A DNA stretch of 64,000 nt from Fidelibacterota bacterium (GCA_018650795.1 JABIFG010000141.1:12902-76901), one strand, 5' to 3'; shown: positions 5,727-53,858, counted from the first letter of the stretch. The notes: generated from the letters alone by a model not told the origin. Translations and numbers: made by a program.

Positions 5727-5762
5727 GTTTAGCAAGCCACGACGATAGAGTTGTTCGGCACT

Positions 5763-5823
5763 CCGAGCGGAGTCGAGGGGTCCATTAATTTGCTTGATAT
5801 AAATATCCCTCGACTCCGCTCGG
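5763..5823. repeat. inverted pair of REP-like repeat units forming a 17-bp perfect hairpin
   Basis: CCGAGCGGAGTCGAGGG (5763-5779) pairs with CCCTCGACTCCGCTCGG (5807-5823) across a 27-nt loop. The right copy reads GTCATCCCGAGCGGAGTCGAGGG on the minus strand. Same family as the repeats at 14.7, 16.6 and 32.0-32.4 kb. Confidence 0.8.
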
Positions 5824-5969
5824 GATGACGAACTAGAGTTATGTGATATTTAACCATTTCTTCAAGAGCCCCAGTGTGTCGACTCGTGGCGACGGGTTGA
5901 ATGCTTCAAGTTTCTATAATCGGTCCAATACCTAGCTTTCAAATCACTATAAAAATCTTATACTAATTC

Positions 5970-14935: not shown

Positions 14936-16492
14936 TTGGACCCAAACATGCCAGGAAAACCACTCATGAAACACCCCATGCTATTGATTTTTGTTGTCAT
15001 CATCCTTGCTGCCTGTGCAGCACCCCAGCCAGCTGTGACCCCAGAAGCAATGGAAGCACCCCCAACAGCTATCAAGCATGCAATCGAGATCCCCCGAGAA
15101 TTCAGAGCCGCCTGGGTAGCCACAGTAGCCAATATTGACTGGCCCAGCAAACCGGGTCTTAGCACCGCTGAACAACAGGCCGAAGCCATCAGCCTGCTGG
15201 ATAGTGCCGTCATCCTCAACCTCAACGCTATCGTTTTCCAGGTGCGTCCCCAGTGTGATGCCCTCTATCAAAGTGAGCTGGAGCCCTGGTCTTATTTTCT
15301 CACCGGTGAGCAGGGTAAAGCACCAGAACCTTTTTATGACCCCCTTGCTTTCTGGGTAGCAGAAGCCCATAAACGCGGTCTGGAACTCCACACCTGGTTC
15401 AATCCCTATCGCGCTCATCATCCCAATGGACAGAAAAACGAGACCTCCGTGATCTCTACCCGCCCGGAAATTGTACGAGAAATTGACAAGGGTTATTTCT
15501 GGCTGGATCCCGCCATGCAAGCCACACAGGATTACTCTTACGATGTGGTTATGGATGTGGTCAAACGTTATGACATCGATGGGGTCCATTTTGATGATTA
15601 TTTCTACCCCTACAGCAATATTGAATTCCCCGATGATATTCCCTGGCAGAACTATCTGGATAATGGCGGTAGCCTGGAACGTAATGACTGGCGTCGTGAA
15701 GCAGTCAATGTTTTTATCAAACGCGTCTATAGTGGTATCAAGGCAGAAAAAAACTGGGTCAAATTTGGTCTTAGTCCCTTTGGTATCTGGCGTCCCGGCA
15801 ATCCTGCCTCTATTCAGGGCTATGACCAGTATGACAAACTCTATGCAGATGCAAAACTATGGTTGAATGAGGGCTGGGTTGACTATTGGACCCCCCAACT
15901 GTACTGGCCCACACGTAAGATTCCCCAGAGCTATCCAGTATTGCTGGGTTGGTGGGTTGGTCAAAATACACATGACAGAAATATCTGGCCGGGTCTTTTT
16001 ACCAGCAAAATTAAGGATGAAGCCAGCGCTCTGGAAAACTTCAGCCAGATCATGATTACCCGCGGAATGGTTCCCAAGGGCCCTGGTAATGTCCACTTCT
16101 CAATGAAAGCCCTGCAGCGCAATTATGGAGGAATTTCTGACATCCTTCTCAAAGGACCCTACGCCAGGCCGGCACTTATCCCACCATCACCCTGGCTTGA
16201 CAATCAAGTACCGGCTGCACCTCTGGTAGAACTGAATCCCAGGGAAGGCAATGTCCATGTCCATTGGCTTCATGAAGACCAGGAAGATGTCAATCAATGG
16301 GTGGTTTACTTTCAGCGTGGCAAGAAGTGGGATTACAAAATTCTCAACGCCGATAAGGAAGTTTATGTATTACCATTGGTGATCCGCTCTGAAGACGGCA
16401 TGACCCCCCCTGAAGTACTGGATACTATTGCTGTGACAGCAGTAGATCGTTTGGGCAATGAGAGCGAAAGGATTTACATCCCGGTCAGATAA
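14936..16492 (+). CDS. glycoside-hydrolase-like family 10 (GHL10 / YngK-YddW type) lipoprotein
   Basis: REFRAAWVATVANIDWPSKPGLS...LNLNAIVFQVRPQCDALYQSELEPWS..LTG.QG...YDPLAFWVAEAHKRGLELHTWFNPYR is the PF02638-type signature. A lipobox (IILAAC) follows the internal Met at 14966. Confidence 0.8.
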   Translation: MDPNMPGKPLMKHPMLLIFVVIILAACAAPQPAVTPEAMEAPPTAIKHAIEIPREFRAAWVATVANIDWPSKPGLSTAEQQAEAISLLDSAVILNLNAIVFQVRPQCDALYQSELEPWSYFLTGEQGKAPEPFYDPLAFWVAEAHKRGLELHTWFNPYRAHHPNGQKNETSVISTRPEIVREIDKGYFWLDPAMQATQDYSYDVVMDVVKRYDIDGVHFDDYFYPYSNIEFPDDIPWQNYLDNGGSLERNDWRREAVNVFIKRVYSGIKAEKNWVKFGLSPFGIWRPGNPASIQGYDQYDKLYADAKLWLNEGWVDYWTPQLYWPTRKIPQSYPVLLGWWVGQNTHDRNIWPGLFTSKIKDEASALENFSQIMITRGMVPKGPGNVHFSMKALQRNYGGISDILLKGPYARPALIPPSPWLDNQVPAAPLVELNPREGNVHVHWLHEDQEDVNQWVVYFQRGKKWDYKILNADKEVYVLPLVIRSEDGMTPPEVLDTIAVTAVDRLGNESERIYIPVR

Positions 16493-16640: not shown

Positions 16641-16680
16641 CAACCTGAGCCGTCACACTGAGCTTGTCGAAGTGCGAAGG
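16641..16680 (+). repeat. REP-like repeat unit
   Basis: CAACCTGAGCCGTCACACTGAGCTTGTCGAAGTGCGAAGG. Shares the 20-nt and 15-nt identical blocks with the inverted copy at 14738-14804. Confidence 0.85.
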
Positions 16681-22056: not shown

Positions 22057-22737
22057 CTAGGAGCTATGTGCCACGGCCGAGGGTGTTTGACAACCCACGA
22101 TGGCTGGTACTTCTTGAATCAAATCATCTTTTACCAGGGCATCCACCATAAATAAGGCAAAATCAATGCGACGGGTTTTGTTGCTCTCCAGGATAGGATC
22201 TCCAATATGCTGGCTCCAGACTGGCAGTCCCTGGCTTTCACCTTCTTCCAGATCGCTGCCACGCACTACAGTCCATTTGGTATCGCTCTCAAAAATACGC
22301 CGACAAGCTTCCACCTGATCATCCAACTCAACAGCACGGAAGAATCGTCCAATCTTTGCTGCAATACTCACTAGAACTTTAAAGGTGGTGGAGTAAACGT
22401 CTTTGCCATCCCGGGTGATATGCCAGCCACAGGAAAAAATGAGACGAGCGCTTGGTTGGGCATAATCCATGACAGCCTGGGCCGTCCCAGATGAATACTG
22501 CTGAACTCCCCAGGGTACCAAAACGGTCAGTACGCCATCGCAGCCGGTTACTGCCTGTTTAATGATTTCCCTGTCATTGGTGGCTCCAGGGATGATGGTC
22601 ATTTTATCCTTAAAAGCATCGAGTTTACTGACACTCTTTTCACGGCAGACACCCACCACCTCGTAACCGCGATCCAGGGCATGCTGAACCATATATCTTC
22701 CTAATTTCCCTGATGCTCCCACGATACAAATCTTCAT
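22057..22737 (-). CDS. NAD(P)H-binding (NmrA/atypical SDR-like) oxidoreductase
   Basis: The ATG at 22737 is preceded by GGAGA. It gives MKICIVGASGKLGRYMVQHALDRGYEVVGVCR, a Rossmann GxxGxxG motif. Confidence 0.7.
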   Translation of the reverse strand: MKICIVGASGKLGRYMVQHALDRGYEVVGVCREKSVSKLDAFKDKMTIIPGATNDREIIKQAVTGCDGVLTVLVPWGVQQYSSGTAQAVMDYAQPSARLIFSCGWHITRDGKDVYSTTFKVLVSIAAKIGRFFRAVELDDQVEACRRIFESDTKWTVVRGSDLEEGESQGLPVWSQHIGDPILESNKTRRIDFALFMVDALVKDDLIQEVPAIVGCQTPSAVAHSS

Positions 22738-22900
22738 ATATTCTCCAATAATTGAATAGTTGTCAATATTAACTAACGCTGGCAAACTAGAAGAAAAGGT
22801 TCGATCTAAAACAACAAAGATTGACCTTGTTGGTGTATATGGGATACTGTGATAAGCAGAATATCAAAAACCACGTTATAGGGGGAAGTGGCAATACTTG

Positions 22901-23575
22901 TTACATCGGTCCAGTGTTGTCAATTATTGGTTTTGATATATGCTGTAAATAGACATCAATGGCCTGCTTCAGCCGGGCTGGCTTGAATCCATATGGACCA
23001 ATCCCGGCCGCGTATTTAACCAGACCATCTAGTCCAATCAGATACAAGCGCGTGGGTTTGGCTGCATAGGCCTTACTAACGGAATCATCCATATTATCTA
23101 CATAGGTACGGATGTCATATTGTAAAGAGGCTTCGCATTGACCTGCCACAAGTCGACGTTCTTCAATTGTTTGGGGATCGTACACATCAAAAGCGGTCGC
23201 GGGGCTATACTTTTTGGTTAGTTTTCCCAATATCCCACCGCCCATCCACCAGCCATCCACGGGGTGTGCTTCACGTATATAAATGGGCAAGAATTGAACT
23301 TGTTCGCTATAGTTCTGGTACAGCTCGCGGAGACTCACGGTCCCCTTCACGTAGGGCGGTCATGTGAAACTACCAAAGACCAGCGCCACTGGTTTTTGTC
23401 CACGGAATTCAGACAGACGTACACGCTGTTTGCCACTCGCGTCAAACAGTTCAAAATCAGGGGCTTCGTCCCCTTCTTTTGGAGCCAAAGCATTATACTT
23501 CTTCTGCCAGACCGCCTCTTTATTTCGATACTGTAAAGTTTTAGTGATAAAATTCAAGATTAAAATTCCCCTCAT
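22901..23575 (-). CDS. iodothyronine-deiodinase-like thioredoxin-fold selenoprotein (in-frame UGA = Sec at codon 72)
   Basis: Track ORFs 23360-23575 and 22901-23350 are in the same frame, separated only by TGA (23362-23360) and three sense codons. The joined product reads ...KPVALVFGSFT-U-PPYVKGTVSLRELYQNYSEQVQFLPIYIREAHPVDGWW...YAAKPTRLYLIGLDGLVKYAAGIGPYGF. This matches the deiodinase signatures GS.T-U-P.F, IYI.EAH..DGW and YAA.P.RLY.I. Confidence 0.8.
23329..23345 (-). promoter_or_regulatory. putative bacterial SECIS apical hairpin
   Basis: The mRNA reads UGA-N14-GGGGAC CGUGA GUCUCC. That is a 6-bp stem (one G-U pair) with a 5-nt loop containing GU, sitting 24-25 nt after the U of UGA. The spacing is close to the E. 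coli fdhF SECIS as I recall it. Confidence 0.55.
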
Positions 23576-23625
23576 GTAGATTTTGTACCGTGCAGTTCGC
23601 CTTAGAAGTGCAACTTTTTCAGGCT

Positions 23626-24027
23626 TTACGCCACTTTCACAACAGCTTCACCATCAATAACTATTTTACCTTTGCTGTTCACGCAAAATGTTCGCAAGGT
23701 CACAATCGGTTTGTCCTCACGGATTTTTATAACCTGAACCGTTGCAGTGACCTCTTCATCAATAAACACCGGATGGGTAAAATTGAGTGATTGGCCTAAA
23801 TAGATACCGCCTTTACCAGCCAAATCATTACCCAGCAGGCCGGAAAAAAGACTGGCGACCAGCATGCCATGCACAATTCTTTGCCCAAAAACAGTCTCTT
23901 TTGCAAAAGACGAGTCTAGATGAAGGGGGTTTTTATCCAAGGATAGGTCTGAGAACTCATGGACGTCACTATCTGTGAAGATTTTTTTCACTGATCTTTT
24001 GTCGCCAACCTTCAATTTGATCATCAT
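23626..24027 (-). CDS. MaoC-like (R)-specific enoyl-CoA hydratase / hot-dog fold dehydratase
   Basis: FSDLSLDKNPLHLDSSFAKETVFGQRIVHGMLVASLFSGLLGN...PG is the MaoC dehydratase signature. 133 aa. Confidence 0.85.
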   Translation of the reverse strand: MMIKLKVGDKRSVKKIFTDSDVHEFSDLSLDKNPLHLDSSFAKETVFGQRIVHGMLVASLFSGLLGNDLAGKGGIYLGQSLNFTHPVFIDEEVTATVQVIKIREDKPIVTLRTFCVNSKGKIVIDGEAVVKVA

Positions 24028-24134
24028 TATGATCCTTTCAGAAATATTACTAGGTGTCGGGCCGTAGCTCTGGAAGAGCGAAGATGGGCTTTAAACTTTT
24101 AGCAAGGCCACCTGAAATCTTGTCTTGCCATTTT

Positions 24135-25025
24135 TCAATTATATCCAGCTGAGAATTCTAGCAATCTAACATTCAGTGTTTCCTGGACTACTTGCCCGTA
24201 GTGGTCAAGTGATAAATACAAGACACCCACATTGTTTTTAATCCATATCTCACCATCATAAACCTGAAAAATGATAGATGAAGTTAAAGCTGTGGTTCCA
24301 GAGAATGCATCAGAACTGGAATTGTATAATTGATTTGTGAATGGAGTTTGAAGTTCAAGGTTTGTCATGCCATGGTTTAAGCTCTCATGGAAATACTTAT
24401 TAAGAACTATTGAAAAACTTGTATCTGCAAAAGGAACTGATAAAAATGAGGCTACAGCATAGTTTTCATCTATAGGTTCCTCCAGATATTGAAGGTCGTT
24501 TATTTCAATAGTGTCGCTAAGACCGTAGGATTTCTTAAAACCGGCGATAGTTATTTCTGAGCCAATAGAACCAGGGGAAGAATCGATAATAATACGGTGA
24601 ATTATTAGATCTATAAAACTATCATAAGGAGGTTCATCCCAGCGAGTATACTTATACTCATATGTCCAATGGGAGCCAACAGTAGATGGGTAGTAGTCTA
24701 TCTTGACAAGCGATAAGTCGACAATAGTATCAGCGGTACTATTAAAAAGAAAGCTAGTGTCCATATGCATCAAAGAAAACAGAGAAAATAAATAATCATC
24801 GTTTCCGCCCAGACTGATCTCATAGTTCCCTAGGCTGTCTGAATAGGCAACACCTGAATCCTGTGAGGAATGATATTTGATTGCAACTCCTTGAATTGCC
24901 ACGGAAGACCCCATAATATGCCCACTCAAATTAATCTTTGGGCTTTCATTGATTGGCCGAGTCGTTTCTGTACTACATGAAATTTGTAGTATCAACAGAG
25001 ACGCAATTGACAATTCCCTTATCAT
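24135..25025 (-). CDS. hypothetical lipoprotein (cassette-borne)
   Basis: 296 aa with a lipobox-type signal (LLILQISCS). Low GC and no recognisable catalytic motif. Starts just downstream of an attC-like repeat. Confidence 0.45.
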   Translation of the reverse strand: MIRELSIASLLILQISCSTETTRPINESPKINLSGHIMGSSVAIQGVAIKYHSSQDSGVAYSDSLGNYEISLGGNDDYLFSLFSLMHMDTSFLFNSTADTIVDLSLVKIDYYPSTVGSHWTYEYKYTRWDEPPYDSFIDLIIHRIIIDSSPGSIGSEITIAGFKKSYGLSDTIEINDLQYLEEPIDENYAVASFLSVPFADTSFSIVLNKYFHESLNHGMTNLELQTPFTNQLYNSSSDAFSGTTALTSSIIFQVYDGEIWIKNNVGVLYLSLDHYGQVVQETLNVRLLEFSAGYN

Positions 25026-25061
25026 TTATTTTCCAGATTCTCGTATATCACTCTATCAGTT

Positions 25062-25190
25062 GGCCTAACGTTTCAGCCATAACCTGCTTCTCAACAGATT
25101 GTAGTATTGTAAAAACACGGTATCCCTGTAGTTCATTTTTATTAACCGAGCCCTTTGTGTGAGTAAGGTTGAAGCCGTTGATAGAAAGCC
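25062..25190 (-). repeat. attC-like repeat copy 2 (degenerate palindrome)
   Basis: Begins directly after the stop of 25191-26675. Its first 35 nt on the minus strand (GGGCTTTCTATCAACGGCTTCAACCTTACTCACAC) match copy 1 at 28 of 35 positions without gaps. Further shared blocks are ACAGGG.ACCG, AATCTGTT, GAAGCAG and CGTTAG. It ends in GTTAGGC, which fits the GTTRRRY consensus. Confidence 0.6.
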
Positions 25191-26675
25191 CTACTTCAGA
25201 AAGATTATAGTCCTATTCTCATGCCAAGACAACGCTGATACTCTTAAGAAATAAAGTCCTGAGCTTAATTCAAACCCATTATTTGTAGTACCATTCCAAA
25301 ACTGATTGTAACGTCCTGCTTCCTGTTCGCTAAATTTGCGACTCCATATTTTTGTACCTGACAAATCATAAATATCTAAGACCACTGATGAACGAACGGG
25401 TAAAGTATATCCAATATTACAGGTACTATTCGTTGGATTTGGCGAAATGGTAATTTGCCGAAAGAATGAATCAGATTTTTCCGTTGGGATTAGTGCCGAC
25501 GTGGATGTTTGACCCATCGAGTCCGTCTTAATTATCCAAAAATCCGCATTTGAATCTCGACCCACTACAAGAAATCCATTGTCATAAGTTTGAATCACAG
25601 CCTTCATCTCATTGTAACCATGACTACCATAGGTTCTAGTCCACATAACCTCACCATCAGAATCTGTTTTTACCATCCAGCCAAGATCATCATTATTAGC
25701 CAGCCCCGCATTTTGTTTTTGACCAACCATTAGAAACCCACCATCATTTGTTTGAACCAATGAGCTTGTAATCTCATTATGGTAATCTCCATATGTATGA
25801 GACCATACTATTTCACCGTTAGAATCAATTTTAAATAACCAAAAATCTCCCTGGGTGGATTCAAATGAGGCTGTGAAACCGGTAATTACGAAACACTGAT
25901 CGTCAGTCCGCACTAGGTCATAAGCCGCATGAAACCCCGCACCACCATATGTTTCAGTCCAAAGTGTGTCACCATTTGCATCTGTTTTTAATATCCAACA
26001 ATCCCCGTCGTCACTTGTCCCCACTACTAAGTATTCTTGATCATGGGTTTCTAAAACTGAATGTGTTGCATCATTCAAACCCATATTATATCCGCGTGTC
26101 CATAAAGTATCACCGTTGATATCGGTCTTGATTAACAATAAGTCTTTCTCTGGCTCATCAAATGATAAAACTTTTCCGCATATCAAATATCCTTCGTCGG
26201 TCGTTTCAATAACTGAAGAGCCAATACTAATTGCAAATTCCCCAACACCAAAAGTTCTCGTCCAAAGGGTATCTCCAGCTTGATCAATTTTAACTAACCA
26301 AATGCCCCCTTCCTCACTCATAATTGTCCCCGAAAAAACATAATCATGGGTAAGAGTTTCAATTATCGAGTAAGCTTCCTCAATAATTGCGTCTTCTCCA
26401 TATGTTTTTGACAAGATTGTATCACCAGAAAGATTTGCCTTGATCAGCCAGATATCAGAAGCCTCTGGTGAACCATAACCAAAAGACTCTGTTGTACCAA
26501 TTACAGTATATGTTGAATCCGCCGTTTGAACCACGGACATTGCTCGATCAAACCAGGCTCCGCCATACGACTTAATCCAAGTGTTTTGACCATAAGACAC
26601 CGATATCACCAATAGTGTGGTGATATTTATCGATAGTCGTAATATATTTGATCTCATATTTCCTGCCCCACCCAT
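25191..26675 (-). CDS. secreted beta-propeller-like repeat protein with T9SS type-A C-terminal sorting domain (cassette-borne)
   Basis: At least six ~48-aa repeats, each ending in a GDT-type motif (GDTILSKTYG, GDTLWTRTFG, GDTLWTRGYN, GDTLWTETYG, GEIVWSHTYG, GEVMWTRTYG). The C-terminus is ISPNPTNSTCNIGYTLPVRSSVVLDIYDLSGTKI...GRYNQFWNG...SGLYFLRVS....IIFLK. Confidence 0.7.
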   Translation of the reverse strand: MGGAGNMRSNILRLSINITTLLVISVSYGQNTWIKSYGGAWFDRAMSVVQTADSTYTVIGTTESFGYGSPEASDIWLIKANLSGDTILSKTYGEDAIIEEAYSIIETLTHDYVFSGTIMSEEGGIWLVKIDQAGDTLWTRTFGVGEFAISIGSSVIETTDEGYLICGKVLSFDEPEKDLLLIKTDINGDTLWTRGYNMGLNDATHSVLETHDQEYLVVGTSDDGDCWILKTDANGDTLWTETYGGAGFHAAYDLVRTDDQCFVITGFTASFESTQGDFWLFKIDSNGEIVWSHTYGDYHNEITSSLVQTNDGGFLMVGQKQNAGLANNDDLGWMVKTDSDGEVMWTRTYGSHGYNEMKAVIQTYDNGFLVVGRDSNADFWIIKTDSMGQTSTSALIPTEKSDSFFRQITISPNPTNSTCNIGYTLPVRSSVVLDIYDLSGTKIWSRKFSEQEAGRYNQFWNGTTNNGFELSSGLYFLRVSALSWHENRTIIFLK

Positions 26676-26693
26676 TTTTAGATAGAATTAGTG

Positions 26694-26829
26694 CTTTCTA
26701 ACGCTCTAGGCTTGAGCTGCTTCATGAGAAGTGTTCAAAACAGATTCGGTACCCTGTATGCGTGATATCAATTTCAGTTTCCCCCGAAATGAGTGTGAGT
26801 CAGCTCTAAGCCTTTGTTAGAAACCCCTG
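26694..26829 (-). repeat. attC-like repeat copy 1 (well-folding)
   Basis: Three segments pair: TTTCTAAC (26695-702) with GTTAGAAA (26816-823), AGGCTT (26708-713) with AAGCCT (26808-813), and GAGCTG (26714-719) with CAGCTC (26801-806). They are interrupted by an internal loop (GCTCT vs TT) and one bulged base (26807). This is an R-box / unpaired spacer / L-box with an extrahelical base, around an ~80-nt variable centre. Confidence 0.65.
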
Positions 26830-26864
26830 AATATAGCAATAATTACTATTACTCAGAATGTTTA

Positions 26865-27134
26865 TCAATGTGAATCGTAATGTCCACCAATGGCAAAGAT
26901 GTAAATGGATTTGTCATCATATTTATAAATTACTCTATCCCCTTTAGACAATCTCCGTGACCAAAACCCTTTAAGGTTGTGTCTGAGTTGTTCAGGCTTG
27001 CCTAATCCGTGTGATGGATCGCCTCTTTGCATTTCTTGGATAATCTTACACAGATTCGTGTGTAGTTTTTTGTCCTTCTTTCGAAGTTCTTCATATTTTG
27101 ACCAGCTTTTACCTTCAAATACTATTGATCTCAT
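26865..27134 (-). CDS. yoeB: YoeB/Txe family toxin (ribosome-dependent mRNA interferase)
   Basis: ...GLGKPEQLRHNLKGFWSRRLSKGDRVIYKYDDKSIYIFAIGGHY closely parallels E. coli YoeB (GKGKPEPLKHNLSGFWSRRI...HRLVY...HY). Confidence 0.9.
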   Translation of the reverse strand: MRSIVFEGKSWSKYEELRKKDKKLHTNLCKIIQEMQRGDPSHGLGKPEQLRHNLKGFWSRRLSKGDRVIYKYDDKSIYIFAIGGHYDSH

Positions 27135-27387
27135 CTAATTCCTCAGAAGTTGGGGAATATCCTGATCCCGTAGTATGAGTTTCAATGGATTCGATAATTT
27201 GTGCCGAAAGAGATGAGTTCTGAAGCACAAATAGGGTTTCTTGCTCCCTCTCCCAATCCTCAGCACTTTGTACAACAAAATCTTTACCGGCACGTCTTTT
27301 AACACGAATGCTAGAGTGCTCAGAAAGCGCTTGATCCACAAAGGCTTTTATATTTGCCCTAAACTGGTTTACTGAGACTTCAATCAT
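27115..27387 (-). CDS. yefM: YefM/Phd family antitoxin
   Basis: 90 aa with a Phd/YefM-type N-terminus (SVNQFRANIKAFVDQAL..SSIRVKRRAGKDFVVQSAEDWEREQETLFVLQNS). Overlaps yoeB by 20 nt. Confidence 0.85.
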   Translation of the reverse strand: MIEVSVNQFRANIKAFVDQALSEHSSIRVKRRAGKDFVVQSAEDWEREQETLFVLQNSSLSAQIIESIETHTTGSGYSPTSEELDEINSI

Positions 27388-27415
27388 TATAAGCTCCTTT
27401 CATATTTCGCCCATA

Positions 27416-27436
27416 ATGTACCATATTGCGGTACAT
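27416..27436. promoter_or_regulatory. putative YefM-YoeB operator palindrome
   Basis: ATGTACC-N7-GGTACAT lies 29-49 nt upstream of the yefM start. The E. coli yefM-yoeB operator is built on TGTACA-type palindromes. Confidence 0.5.
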
Positions 27437-27909
27437 ATCACAAGATAACATTTAACAATCACAAACTATCCTTGGGGTGTTTCTAACAGTGTTTATACGG
27501 TCTCGTATAAGACGAACCAAACGCCCAAACGCCCGTATAATTTTTTTTATTGTTTGCGTAAGTTTCTGTTATTCAACAGTCTATCCTTAGTCCGTTTTTA
27601 TCGCGGAATTTTATCATGACCGCATAAATAGCTCGCCTCAGCTCCACAAGCGCCGAGTGTATTTTGTTATGGCCTGTAAATGCTGTGTTTTGCACAAGAA
27701 CCCCCGTCCCTGGTTTATATCATACGCGAATCTAGACCTTCTGTCTATTTAATCAAGAGCTCAGTTCTTCAGGCTTCTTGAAGGCGACTGAAAGTCAAAG
27801 CGGAAGTCCCAAAATATGAGAGATATGCTCTAGATTATTGAGTCTTACCTGAATACCTTAGATGCTGTAAAAAAAATAATCTTGTGTTTGGAAAGGGTAA
27901 AAGTCATCC

Positions 27910-28980
27910 ATGGCCAGTAAAGGCATGAAAATAGCCGAAGCACTCAAACATCTCGGTCTTGAAAAAACTGCTGACGCTAATGATGTCAAGCTAGCCTATC
28001 GTGATCTGGCCAAAATCTGGCACCCCGACCGCTTTCAAAACGATGAACGAGTTGGTGCCAAAGCAGAAGCCCAGATCAAAATCATCAATGAAGCCAAAAC
28101 GGTGGCCCTCAACTATGTTGAGAAATATGGTCATTTCCGACACGTCAAGGATGATAATGCGGGTGCCGGTATGGGCTTTGAGCCCCCCAGGCCACCCCCC
28201 AGATACCAACAGCAACAAGCCAGACCACGCCCTAGACCACAGCCAGAACCGGAACCACCACCGCGAAAAGAACCCCCCAAGCCGCCCCCAAAAAAGGAAC
28301 GGCCCAAACCACCACCACGGTCCAAGCCGGAACCTGATGTCTTTGAAGAATCCATGTCCTTTAGTGATTATTTGCCTGGCTCAACCTCTCTTTTTGTAGC
28401 CACTATCCTGATTATCCTGATAGGCTTCTTTTTTATGCTGGGTTCTTCACTCTTCAACTCACCAGTGGATCGTTTTAAAGAGTATGCCGAAAGACCAACT
28501 CTCCAGAGTGCTGCCAGAGTTAAAGCCATGCAACAGCGCGAGGCTGAGGCAACCCGGACAAAAGCCGCTGTAAAAAAAGAAGAGCCTGTAGCTGAAGTGG
28601 TCATTTTAGATACTTTTTTTACACTGGGCTCTGACAAAGACTGGGTTTCTGAGGTTCAAGGTCCGCCCCTGCAGATCAAAGGGCTGGAGTGGCGCTATGG
28701 TTTCTCCACAGTTCAGTTCGATGGTGACAAAGTGGTTTCCTGGATATCTTCAGAATTAAATCCACTGAAGGTTGGAATGATTCTGGATCCCAATCGCTTC
28801 TATTCCGATCGTTATTTCAGCACAGGCTCCAAAAAGGATGAGGTGGCTGCCATCCAGGGCGCTCCGGATATTATTGAACCCAACAGGTGGACCTATGGTG
28901 ATGCCTGGGTAGAATTTGATTCAGATACGGTAGTGACTTGGCAGAACGATCAATCCATTCGTCTTGCTATCCGCTATTAA
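27910..28980 (+). CDS. J-domain (DnaJ-like) membrane protein with Pro-rich linker and duplicated C-terminal domain
   Basis: J-domain with an HPD motif (AYRDLAKIWHPDRFQNDE). The linker is RPRPRPQPEPEPPPRKEPPKPPPKKERPKPPPRSKPEP. One TM helix (LFVATILIILIGFFFMLGSSLF). Two related ~50-aa C-terminal repeats (FTLGSDKDWVSEVQGPP..WRYG...VQFDGDKVVSW and FSTGSKKDEVAAIQGAP..WTYGDAWVEFDSDTVVTW). Confidence 0.75.
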   Translation: MASKGMKIAEALKHLGLEKTADANDVKLAYRDLAKIWHPDRFQNDERVGAKAEAQIKIINEAKTVALNYVEKYGHFRHVKDDNAGAGMGFEPPRPPPRYQQQQARPRPRPQPEPEPPPRKEPPKPPPKKERPKPPPRSKPEPDVFEESMSFSDYLPGSTSLFVATILIILIGFFFMLGSSLFNSPVDRFKEYAERPTLQSAARVKAMQQREAEATRTKAAVKKEEPVAEVVILDTFFTLGSDKDWVSEVQGPPLQIKGLEWRYGFSTVQFDGDKVVSWISSELNPLKVGMILDPNRFYSDRYFSTGSKKDEVAAIQGAPDIIEPNRWTYGDAWVEFDSDTVVTWQNDQSIRLAIRY

Positions 28981-32002: not shown

Positions 32003-32087
32003 TGTCCCCCTTAGCCTGTCGAAGGGTTGGTCACGGGAAATGGTTGAACCAATAATTGATTTGTGTCATCCTGAGCTTGTCGAAGGA
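32003..32087 (+). repeat. two REP-like repeat units upstream of / overlapping the GIY-YIG ORF
   Basis: TTAGCCTGTCGAAGGG (32011-32026) and GTCATCCTGAGCTTGTCGAAGGA (32065-32087). Same family as the repeats at 5.8, 14.7 and 16.6 kb. Confidence 0.8.
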
Positions 32088-32118
32088 TAGACACCTCAAC
32101 CCAAGAGACAATTCAAAA

Positions 32119-32457
32119 GTGAAAACCTATTGCGTCTATATTTTGAAATGTGCAAATCAAAGCTACTATACTGGCATCACAAGCAGATTGGATGAAAAAA
32201 TATTTGAGCATCAGTCAGGTCAGGACCCTAAGTCCTATACTTTTAATAAACGACCTGTCGAGTTAGTTTTTTCTGCTGACTTTTCAGAAGTAAATGATGC
32301 AATTGCTTTTGAAAAACAGATCAAAGCCTGGAGAAGAGATAAGAAAACAGCCCTTATTGAAGGTAGGATTGACGCGTTACCCGAATTATCCAAAAACTAT
32401 TCCACTAAAACTGATAGCTCCGGCGTGTCCACTTCGACAGGCTCAGCGAGACACTGA
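32119..32457 (+). CDS. GIY-YIG (URI-domain, YhbQ-like) nuclease family protein
   Basis: YCVYILKCANQSYYTGITSRLDEKIFEHQSG...AIAFEKQIKAWRRDKK is the GIY-YIG/COG2827 signature. The track start at 32056 adds MICVILSLSKD, which is translated repeat sequence. The in-frame GTG at 32119 is a more plausible start, and the C-terminal ~10 codons also run into a repeat. Confidence 0.75.
   Translation: MKTYCVYILKCANQSYYTGITSRLDEKIFEHQSGQDPKSYTFNKRPVELVFSADFSEVNDAIAFEKQIKAWRRDKKTALIEGRIDALPELSKNYSTKTDSSGVSTSTGSARH
32429..32454 (-). repeat. REP-like repeat unit, inverted relative to 32065-32087
   Basis: The minus strand reads GTGTCTCGCTGAGCCTGTCGAAGTGG, compared with GTGTCATCCTGAGCTTGTCGAAGGAT at 32063-32088 (about 20 of 26 identical). 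Confidence 0.75.
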
Positions 32458-53451: not shown

Positions 53452-53858
53452 AAAAGCTGAGCCAGGATCAGATCCTGAATTTTCTCCTATATGCTGGAGC
53501 TGTTTATTTTCTGCTGGTTGCCATCGTTCATTTTCTGGGAATTAAAATACCTGGTTTTTTCGTTTATTATAATGTGCCATCCCACGCCTATCAGGATAGG
53601 ATTATTTCCTTTCTAACCTTTGGTTGGTCGGGTCTTTTCTTTCTAACAGCCAGGAAAATGGACTCAGATCTCATCAAGCTTATTCTGGTTATTGGGCTTA
53701 TTGCTGTCATAGCACTTGTAGTGAACACAATAATCACTGACTTTCAACAACTGGACCAGTCCCTTAGTGGTGCTGATTATAAATGGATTATCGGTGGGCT
53801 GATGTTCTACTGGTTGGGTCTTGTGGTTCATTCCAGACAGCACTTTTTAAATAAGTAA
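53448..53858 (+). CDS. membrane protein, unknown function
   Basis: 136 aa with four hydrophobic helices. 4-nt overlap with the upstream gene. Confidence 0.4.
   Translation: MKKLSQDQILNFLLYAGAVYFLLVAIVHFLGIKIPGFFVYYNVPSHAYQDRIISFLTFGWSGLFFLTARKMDSDLIKLILVIGLIAVIALVVNTIITDFQQLDQSLSGADYKWIIGGLMFYWLGLVVHSRQHFLNK

Follow-up and report, generated by a model that had tools for sequence, protein, structure and literature searches.

A probable integron cassette array with an orphan attI-type site in Marinimicrobia

Within a 64-kb stretch of DNA from a Fidelibacterota bacterium (GCA_018650795.1, JABIFG010000141.1:12902-76901; this whole stretch is called the window), the minus strand carries every gene between 24135 and 27387, in the order yefM, yoeB, attC-like element 1, a gene for a 494-aa protein, attC-like element 2 and a gene for a 296-aa protein. 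Together, the data make it very probable that this block is a short chromosomal integron array of Marinimicrobia (SAR406), with an attI-type site at its head and no integrase gene beside it. Because the window contains no integrase, the arrangement is described as a CALIN, a cluster of attC sites without an integron integrase (Cury et al. 2016, PMC4889954), with an orphan attI. The initial annotation, made from the sequence alone, had called the array CALIN-like; the lack of IntI and the attC sites on one strand bear this out, and the attI-like site, which that annotation had not named, amends it. Marinimicrobia are abundant, uncultured bacteria of the dark, low-oxygen ocean, and to our knowledge little is known of how they acquire genes.

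The two elements as attC sites

Element 1 (26696-26822, minus strand, 127 nt) and element 2 (25063-25186, minus strand, 124 nt) align end to end with a column identity of 76%. The initial annotation had found 28 of their first 35 nt identical, and a count by hand gave the same figure. Within the 64 kb, a degenerate 31-nt pattern of the shared 5' arm occurs only in these two elements (chance expectation, 0.01). Element 1 starts 43 nt past the yoeB stop, and element 2 starts 5 nt past the stop of the 494-aa open reading frame (ORF).

Element 1 folds on either strand into an attC-type hairpin comprising: an 8-bp R box (TTTCTAAC/GTTAGAAA); an unpaired spacer of 2/5 nt; and a 6+6-bp L box with one bulge (z-scores of the DNA fold, -2.8 and -3.2). 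This reproduces the structure first described for it, with its single extrahelical base. On the bottom strand a T forms the bulge; it is located on the R''-L'' arm, which is also where the extrahelical bases of canonical attC sites sit. Folded alone, element 2 yields no stable structure (z-scores, +1.4 and +0.1).

Rfam contains no attC family; across the window it gave no match at the gathering threshold, and the region searched at E values up to 10 gave chance-level matches only. A family-specific covariance model (R1) was built from 58 foreign copies, many of them from integrase-adjacent arrays, in an alignment (A2) from which the window copies were left out. On this alignment RNAalifold predicted only a 7-bp core; the attC structure, of 17 pairs, was then specified by hand and checked by pair counting. 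The L-box helix is 93.7% paired in the 58 copies and keeps the position of the bulge, with compensatory double changes at six L-box pairs (for example GGCTT/AAGCC to AGCTT/AAGCT, and GAGCTG/CAGCTC to GTACTG/CAGTAC). The R core YTAAC/GTTAG is paired in most copies (pairs 12-16/136-140), and the four positions outside it are unpaired with the adjacent R'.

Run on the window with filters off, R1 matches element 1 at 89.7 bits (E 4.7e-20; 17/17 pairs canonical) and element 2 at 59.9 bits (E 1.3e-12; 5/17 pairs non-canonical), in agreement with the earlier view of both as attC-like. The matches span 26689-26831 and 25056-25195 on the minus strand, 1.63 kb apart, and nothing else in the 64 kb falls below E 0.9. 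Element 1 has inverted cores (TTCTAAC...GTTAGAA) in which AAC/GTT is intact and the outermost base of each box is off the consensus RYYYAAC/GTTRRRY; further attC features are L-box pairing with an extrahelical base, an adjacent ORF in the same orientation and a length within 57-141 nt. At element 2, R' GTTAGGC fits GTTRRRY, as had been noted, and R'' is TTCTATC, with the core TATC instead of TAAC; this AAC to ATC change departs from RYYYAAC, and 4 of the 12 L-box pairs are broken. The octamer GTTAGAAA occurs seven times in the window (2.2 expected), and two extra copies, at 53610-53617 and 53640-53647 on the minus strand, 30 nt apart, lie outside any attC according to the model.

Judged by sequence and predicted pairing, both elements are members of a large attC family. 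The 5'-arm pattern gave no match in the GTDB genome collection and matched two metagenome contigs, L011 and L012. The 3'-arm pattern found 23 loci in GTDB species-representative genomes, 18 of them from metagenome-assembled genomes (MAGs) of Candidatus Neomarinimicrobiota/Marinimicrobia, often on several contigs per MAG. With nhmmer and then the covariance model, about 70 distinct copies were collected beyond the window, from metagenome contigs and Marinimicrobia MAGs. These copies form dense single-strand arrays with one site behind nearly each ORF (9 copies in 6.4 kb of L012; five or six each in L034, L015 and L032). The family is about 125 nt long, with the consensus YTAAC-AA-AGGCTT-N-GAGCKG ... 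CAGCTC-AAGCCT-AARGC-GTTAG.

Contigs with this Marinimicrobia-type family also occur under other labels: L013 (Lentisphaeria), L026 (Enterobacteriaceae) and L024 (Bacteroidetes); L013 additionally carries a matching IntI and attI. These contigs are likely mis-binned from co-assemblies, or their labels possibly reflect cassette or integron transfer.

Cassette boundaries

If cassettes are inserted by crossover at G|TT, the bases that follow the GTTA of one attC originally paired with the R'' flank of the next. Across 37 neighbouring pairs of sites, the R'' flank of the later site complements the bases after the GTTA of the preceding one at a mean of 5.1/8 positions, as compared to 2.3/8 for its own adjacent R' and 2.5/8 for all non-neighbour combinations. 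The score is at least 4/8 in 33 of the 37. Each of the four outliers scores 1/8; at least two of these (in L011) span a weaker attC detected later, and the other two pairs are unusually distant.

This footprint bears on whether the elements are a generic intergenic repeat that happens to resemble attC, of the repetitive extragenic palindrome or miniature inverted-repeat transposable element kind, or a terminator hairpin. Element 1 does form a long hairpin with imperfect pairing behind a gene, element 2 is unfolded, and there are two copies in 64 kb. Against this, the family recurs in integrase-adjacent arrays with the G|TT footprint, there is no T-tract terminator signature, and no Rfam family matches. 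Integron cassette insertion leaves this footprint as its mechanistic mark, so that a generic repeat is excluded for these arrays, and such an origin for the two window copies is exceedingly improbable. The initial annotation had likewise set its attC reading against a scattered repeat, and the copies found elsewhere follow ORFs in same-strand arrays that carry the footprint.

In the window, the boundaries define three predicted cassettes on the minus strand. Cassette 1 (26702-27486, 785 bp) comprises yefM, yoeB and element 1, the last six bases of which belong to cassette 2. Cassette 2 (25069-26701, 1633 bp) comprises the 494-aa gene and the decayed element 2. Cassette 3 (24105-25068, 3' end uncertain) comprises the 296-aa gene and a possible relic of an R'' flank. 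The R'' flank of cassette 2 complements the cassette start GAAAGCAC at 7/8 positions and its own adjacent R' at 2/8. For cassette 1, the R'' flank GGGGTTTC complements GAAACACC, the bases after the GTTA of the attI-like site, at 7/8; the first attC in L018 and in L013 likewise has an R'' flank that complements the attI-side bases at 7/8. Of the earlier claim that each cassette start pairs with R'' better than the adjacent R' does, the part on cassette 2 stood, and cassette 1 proved not to discriminate (7/8 against 6/8).

The attI-like site

Immediately ahead of cassette 1, the minus strand at 27484-27627 carries two motifs, each found once in the window with 0 expected. Motif 1 (TTATGCGGTCATGATAAAATTCC) lies at 27605-27627. 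Motif 2 (27484-27510) consists of the inverted repeat TTATAC-GAGACC-GTATAA, ACACT and GTTA, so that the minus strand from 27510 to 27478 reads TTATAC-GAGACC-GTATAA-ACACT-GTTAGAAAC, with the predicted G|TT crossover at 27487|27486.

The arrangement of motif 2 (TTATRC-N6-GYATAA, 5-6 nt, GTTA) also heads the arrays in L013, L016 and L030, 150-290 nt past the intI stop codon. In these three loci, as in the window, the motif 1 pattern TTATRSGG-N5/6-ATAARA-NN-CC lies 116-121 nt upstream of motif 2. Among the loci scanned, window copies apart, the two motifs are found together in L013, L016 and L030 alone, in each case behind the stop codon of intI. L047 was retrieved via its IntI protein and is thus an independent case; both motifs are present there, 121 nt apart, motif 2 has a single mismatch, and the crossover reads GTTAGAAAG. 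In L018, motif 2 alone heads an array, and no intI lies within 5 kb. We know of no universal attI consensus; the conserved order, spacing and position of the motifs argue that 27484-27627 is an attI region. With this site, the locus looks like an integron platform without its integrase, not like loose cassettes.

An alternative is that the cassettes were inserted singly at a secondary ('attG') site by an integrase encoded elsewhere, and that the locus was never an integron platform. CALINs are known to arise by insertion at secondary sites (Cury et al. 2016, PMC4889954; a bioRxiv preprint is also listed, 10.1101/2022.09.11.507474), a pseudogene of intI was not detected, and the interval between the NmrA and DnaJ genes, where the block lies, is a variable hotspot in all relatives. 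Such a history would nevertheless have to produce both motifs, 116-121 nt apart and in the same order as behind intI in L013, L016, L030 and L047, and about 145 nt of attI architecture is not expected at a chance site. We therefore regard the secondary-site route as unlikely, and an attI-type site as the better reading of the region.

A candidate remnant of intI beside the attI-like site was considered and rejected: a DNA alignment hinted at the region coding for the IntI C terminus, and a hidden Markov model (HMM) of five IntI proteins gave no match on the six-frame translation.

Related integrons

The initial annotation had seen no integrase, and this holds for the window in searches by tblastn and HMM. 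The tblastn query, IntI1 of plasmid R100, also found no homologue in the 21-kb locus L001. Full-length IntI1 homologues with 45-49% identity adjoin the arrays in L013, L016, L030 and L034, and all four pass the NCBIfam model TIGR02249 'integron integrase' (404-469 bits; cutoff, 265). Three of the four form a clade with 62-67% mutual identity, and the L034 protein represents a separate lineage. L043/L044 is a further IntI-linked array with the same attC family, and in L047 an attC of this family, interrupted by an insertion sequence (IS), adjoins intI. The integrase-adjacent arrays thus amount to six distinct loci: L013, L016, L030, L034, L043/L044 and L047. The intI gene points toward the cassettes in all of these except L034, where it is divergent. 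NCBI names several of the proteins 'integron integrase [Candidatus Marinimicrobia bacterium]'. Judged from these sequences, the attC family is homogeneous and specific to the phylum, and several MAGs carry complete integrons with it; in the literature searched, no paper linking integrons to Marinimicrobia was found, and database annotation of the integrases already exists.

Two of these loci, L034:51-6205 and L016:632-2836, are both assigned to MAG BH29 and represent two integron types with the same attC family: in L034 intI is divergent, the attI context differs and the IntI is of a distinct lineage (43% identical), and L016 is of the same-direction type. The pair may mean that one genome has two integrons, or that the bin is mixed.

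Proteins with a type IX secretion system (T9SS) tail recur among the cassettes of these Marinimicrobia integrons. Such cargo had initially been thought unusual; being recurrent in the arrays, it is no oddity of the window locus. The 494-aa protein finds tblastn matches in the other arrays examined, mainly via its T9SS tail. At the tblastn threshold used, yefM, yoeB and the 296-aa protein have no homologue in those arrays.

The third cassette and the 494/296 gene pair

R1 finds no attC after the 296-aa gene, even when only 250 nt are searched with filters off. At 24105-24115, 20 nt past the stop, TCAGGTGGCCT agrees at 10/11 positions with the complement predicted for the start of the cassette (TCAGTTGGCCT). 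By chance, the two strands of the whole window would give about 1.4 such matches, which is roughly 1e-3 for this spot and strand. The segment may be what remains of the R'' flank after its attC was lost.

The 296-aa protein has one homologous cluster among 5.8 billion clusters, with 53% identity. In the genome of that homologue, it is adjacent to a homologue of the 494-aa protein (L050:2096-4160; ENA ERZ27316756, k141_486672), beside an RNase D-like gene; the 296-aa homologue lies about 35-57 nt downstream of the 494-aa homologue (35-43% identity, full length), and no attC is present anywhere in L050. The pair is contiguous there, so the window has the same pair split by a decayed attC. Given that both genes are in a three-cassette array, adjacency in the order of L050 has a one-in-three chance. 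One possibility would be that the window pair represents two functionally linked cassettes selected together; another possibility is a cassette fusion in progress.

A bolder proposal is that the window cassettes were made from an attC-less operon, with an attC added after each gene, which would make the block a snapshot of de novo cassette formation. We know of no explanation for the origin of cassettes, and the pair in L050 invites this proposal, which we consider improbable. A milder reading takes the orphan attI platforms of the window and L018 as satellite docking sites that would be served in trans by an IntI encoded elsewhere.

Genes and flanks of the block

The AT-rich, lineage-specific block runs from the MaoC-like gene to the conserved DnaJ upstream region (24028-27815), as delimited by the GC profile and the alignment of relatives. 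The block had been noted as AT-richer than its surroundings, and the profile agrees: GC is 38-40% over 24-28 kb as compared to 43-50% in the rest of the window.

The gene identities first proposed are borne out. On the minus strand, yefM (27115-27387) matches Pfam PhdYeFM_antitox (E 6e-13) and yoeB (26865-27134) matches YoeB_toxin (E 8e-21). The 494-aa ORF (25191-26675, minus strand) encodes a secreted, propeller-like repeat protein with a signal-peptide-like N terminus, seven or eight 'GDTLWT.TYG' repeats and a FlgD_ig/Por_Secre_tail C terminus; FlgD_ig is above the cut-off, and Por_Secre_tail, the T9SS-type C-terminal tail, scores 26.3 bits against a 27-bit cut-off (0.7 under). The 296-aa ORF (24135-25025, minus strand) has no Pfam match and encodes a putative lipoprotein with an N-terminal, lipobox-like LQISC.

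Upstream of yefM, a palindrome TGTACC-N7-GGTACA lies at 27417-27435. It may be an antitoxin operator, by its likeness to the TGTACA operators of E. coli yefM-yoeB. A promoter had been assigned to this gene pair; in a scan for sigma-70 promoters and terminators, sites were no more frequent than in shuffled sequence, which bears neither way on that promoter.

The block is flanked by a gene for a MaoC-like dehydratase (23626-24027, minus strand) on one side and, on the other, by a DnaJ-domain gene (27910-28980, plus strand), which is followed by the valyl-tRNA synthetase gene. The DnaJ domain match agrees with the J-domain protein reported as the nearest upstream gene.

Comparison with relatives

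Homologues of this DnaJ carry the name Candidatus Marinimicrobia. Five distinct relatives (six loci, L037-L042; DnaJ 74-81% identical) keep the NmrA...DnaJ frame, and the four whose contigs extend downstream also keep valyl-tRNA synthetase, phosphodiesterase and TonB. The NmrA-DnaJ interval holds different genes in each relative, and none in L041/L042, where NmrA is directly beside DnaJ. No attC of the window's family occurs in this interval in L037-L042. The gene order is not conserved core synteny, an outcome that would have told against the initial annotation, and the block is absent from all five relatives compared. Conservation upstream of DnaJ begins about 100 nt before the ATG (~27816) in an alignment of four relatives, and at ~27700 in the closest relative, L037.

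These flanks bear on the idea that the window is the edge of a large, active sedentary chromosomal integron whose integrase lies beyond it. The family's attC sites are highly homogeneous, and related MAGs have long arrays, such as L012 with its 9 sites in 6.4 kb, on contigs that are fragments. The window array, in contrast, is bounded by conserved chromosomal genes (the DnaJ upstream region, and MaoC...NmrA), and the 64 kb holds no other attC; because the array starts at an attI-like site, it cannot extend further that way. A large integron of which only the edge is seen is accordingly very improbable here. A sedentary chromosomal integron would have tens of cassettes, homogeneous attC sites and an inherited intI; the window has three cassettes and no intI.

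Several side observations concern the surroundings. In the NmrA-DnaJ hotspot (window 22057-27909), the genes of L037-L042 are on the minus strand and include TfoX_N, 4HBT, Rce1-like, APH, methyltransferase and DUF4256 genes; the relatives likewise lack the MaoC, 71-aa and deiodinase-like genes of the window. A small GIY-YIG domain gene (32056-32457) sits between the genes for valyl-tRNA synthetase and phosphodiesterase, which are directly adjacent in L038, L040 and L041; at the upstream end of the GIY-YIG gene, the repeat GTCAYCCTGAGCTTGTCGAAG is present at 32004-32024 and 32065-32085. A 37-nt inverted repeat with 89% complementarity (14780-14816/16627-16663) brackets a 518-aa ORF (14936-16492). 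Related hairpin repeats of the type GTCA..CTGAGC..GTCGAAG are present at several intergenic sites, including 5753-5833 and 16652-16672; this small repeat family is unrelated to attC.

Population variants and insertion sequences

Across the block, ten contigs from different samples (Saanich Inlet, other metagenomes and MAG GCA_018652845.1) match the window with 99.98-100% identity. Two of the ten are variants of window 26813-26831 (L005:1-118 and L009:1-22) in which the end of an IS110-family element replaces the R'' end of element 1, and a third contig, L004, ends at that same point within element 1. This IS end also adjoins attC sites in L035, L020 and L025 (in L020 and L025 at the right-hand junction), and L047 has the same left-hand junction. 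IS110-family copies are present at L035:826-2113 and L047:12010-13237, and the transposase in L035 has the domains DEDD_Tnp_IS110 and Transposase_20. The insertion point is fixed inside L'' (AACAAAG|GCTTAGAG), and the orientation is always opposite to that of the cassettes. Since the insertions in L005 and L009 occupy the same position as those in other attC sites, the intact element 1 is the target of an attC-specific IS that is polymorphic in the population. The targeting of attC sites by IS elements is a known behaviour.

In the long 5' non-coding end of the IS110 element, CCGAGGCTTAGATCTC nearly repeats the right junction and may be a guide segment of a bridge or seek RNA. The segment GAGGCTTAGA at the 5' end of the element may likewise be a candidate guide for insertion at AACAAAG|GCTTAGAG. 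At L035:3254-4407, a second IS110-family transposase (353 aa) adjoins an attC whose R'' is replaced by the end CCTTTTAGNNAATATC; this end recurs at the 5' ends of the attC sites L014:113, L030:6052 and L035:4392, and the element is probably a second attC-targeting IS family.

Interpretation

In the proposed mechanism, circular cassettes, each an ORF with its attC, would have been inserted successively by an integron integrase, as the footprints suggest. For each insertion, the integrase would recombine the bottom strand of attC, in folded form, with the attI core GTTA and place the crossover between G and TT. The expected outcome downstream of attI would be: yefM-yoeB with an intact attC; the T9SS protein with an attC that has since decayed; and the lipoprotein with an attC that is nearly gone. 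The array would now be largely frozen. Only the site of cassette 1 would still be usable by an IntI encoded elsewhere in the genome, cassettes 2 and 3 being effectively fused and fixed, and the toxin-antitoxin cassette may stabilise the block. In the sampled population the array appears fixed and clonal, apart from the IS110 insertion into the intact attC in some cells. Complete integrons are present in L013, L016, L030 and L034, and the window, without intI, is not one; the most likely origin is loss of intI from a complete integron in which intI, attI and cassettes all ran in one direction, as in the relatives.

A number of observations weigh against this reading. Element 2 and the third attC are degenerate, so that only one of the three sites looks usable, and any recombination activity of the array is read wholly from its sequence. 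No IntI was found in the 64 kb, either by tblastn with IntI1 or with the five-IntI HMM on the six-frame translation, and this HMM recognised no remnant of intI next to the attI-like site; with both lacking, loss of the integrase is an inference only. The footprint of cassette 1, at 7/8, is barely better than the 6/8 match of its R'' flank to the adjacent R', and that of cassette 2 has a family-specific background in which a 7/8 match to GAAAGCAC arises in 1 of 58 foreign sites. The attI patterns were derived after the fact from few sequences, the window included, and the motifs were not found in L043/L044, an integron whose crossover context differs. Finally, the 494/296 pair stands side by side in an ordinary, unrelated chromosomal context in L050, which is awkward for two independent cassettes.

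The window element is a fossilising array of an ordinary kind and implies no new mechanism. The wealth of toxin-antitoxin pairs and T9SS-secreted proteins among the family's cassettes suggests that integrons help to diversify the cell surface and secretome of Marinimicrobia. The attC covariance model and the attI motif could be used for mining cassettes from ocean metagenomes and assigning them to this phylum, and the attC-targeting IS110 elements represent a natural case of sequence-guided targeting of a recombination site.

Comparison with known systems

The window resembles a CALIN in having two attC sites on one strand, 1.63 kb apart, each behind an ORF and with no IntI near, and in cassettes of unknown or non-resistance function. 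The low identity between its attC sites is also CALIN-like, because one of them has decayed. It differs in keeping an attI-type site at its head, which is neither required nor expected of a CALIN, and in a third cassette without an attC.

In 'inverted integrase' integrons, known from Treponema denticola and other non-proteobacterial lineages, intI is transcribed toward attI and the cassettes. L013, L016, L030, L043/L044 and L047 share this same-direction layout, and the window has the same layout minus intI; homogeneous attC sites and toxin-antitoxin cassettes are further likenesses. The differences are: the host, Marinimicrobia/SAR406; an attC consensus of their own, of about 125 nt; and the attI repeat TTATRC-N6-GYATAA, 5-6 nt before GTTA.

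The ends of the elements had been likened to those of aadA-type attC sites, and comparison with the aadA1 attC of R100 (Tn21) supports this: its cores, GTCTAAC...GTTAGAT, are similar to TTCTAAC...GTTAGAA of element 1. The two sites also share an unpaired spacer, an L box whose extrahelical base is on the R''-L'' arm, and a position directly 3' of an ORF. Element 1 is longer (127 nt as compared to 60 nt) and its spacer is 2/5 nt. Canonical attC sites have a bulged G, whereas the bottom-strand bulge of this family is mostly T (G or C in variants).

An IS1111-attC group, of IS110-family elements that target attC, was reportedly described by Tetu and Holmes in 2008. The IS110-family transposases found here resemble that group in their fixed position and orientation in several attC sites, including the element 1 variants. 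Unlike IS1111, they have a long non-coding end upstream of the transposase gene, as is IS110-like, and insert inside L''.

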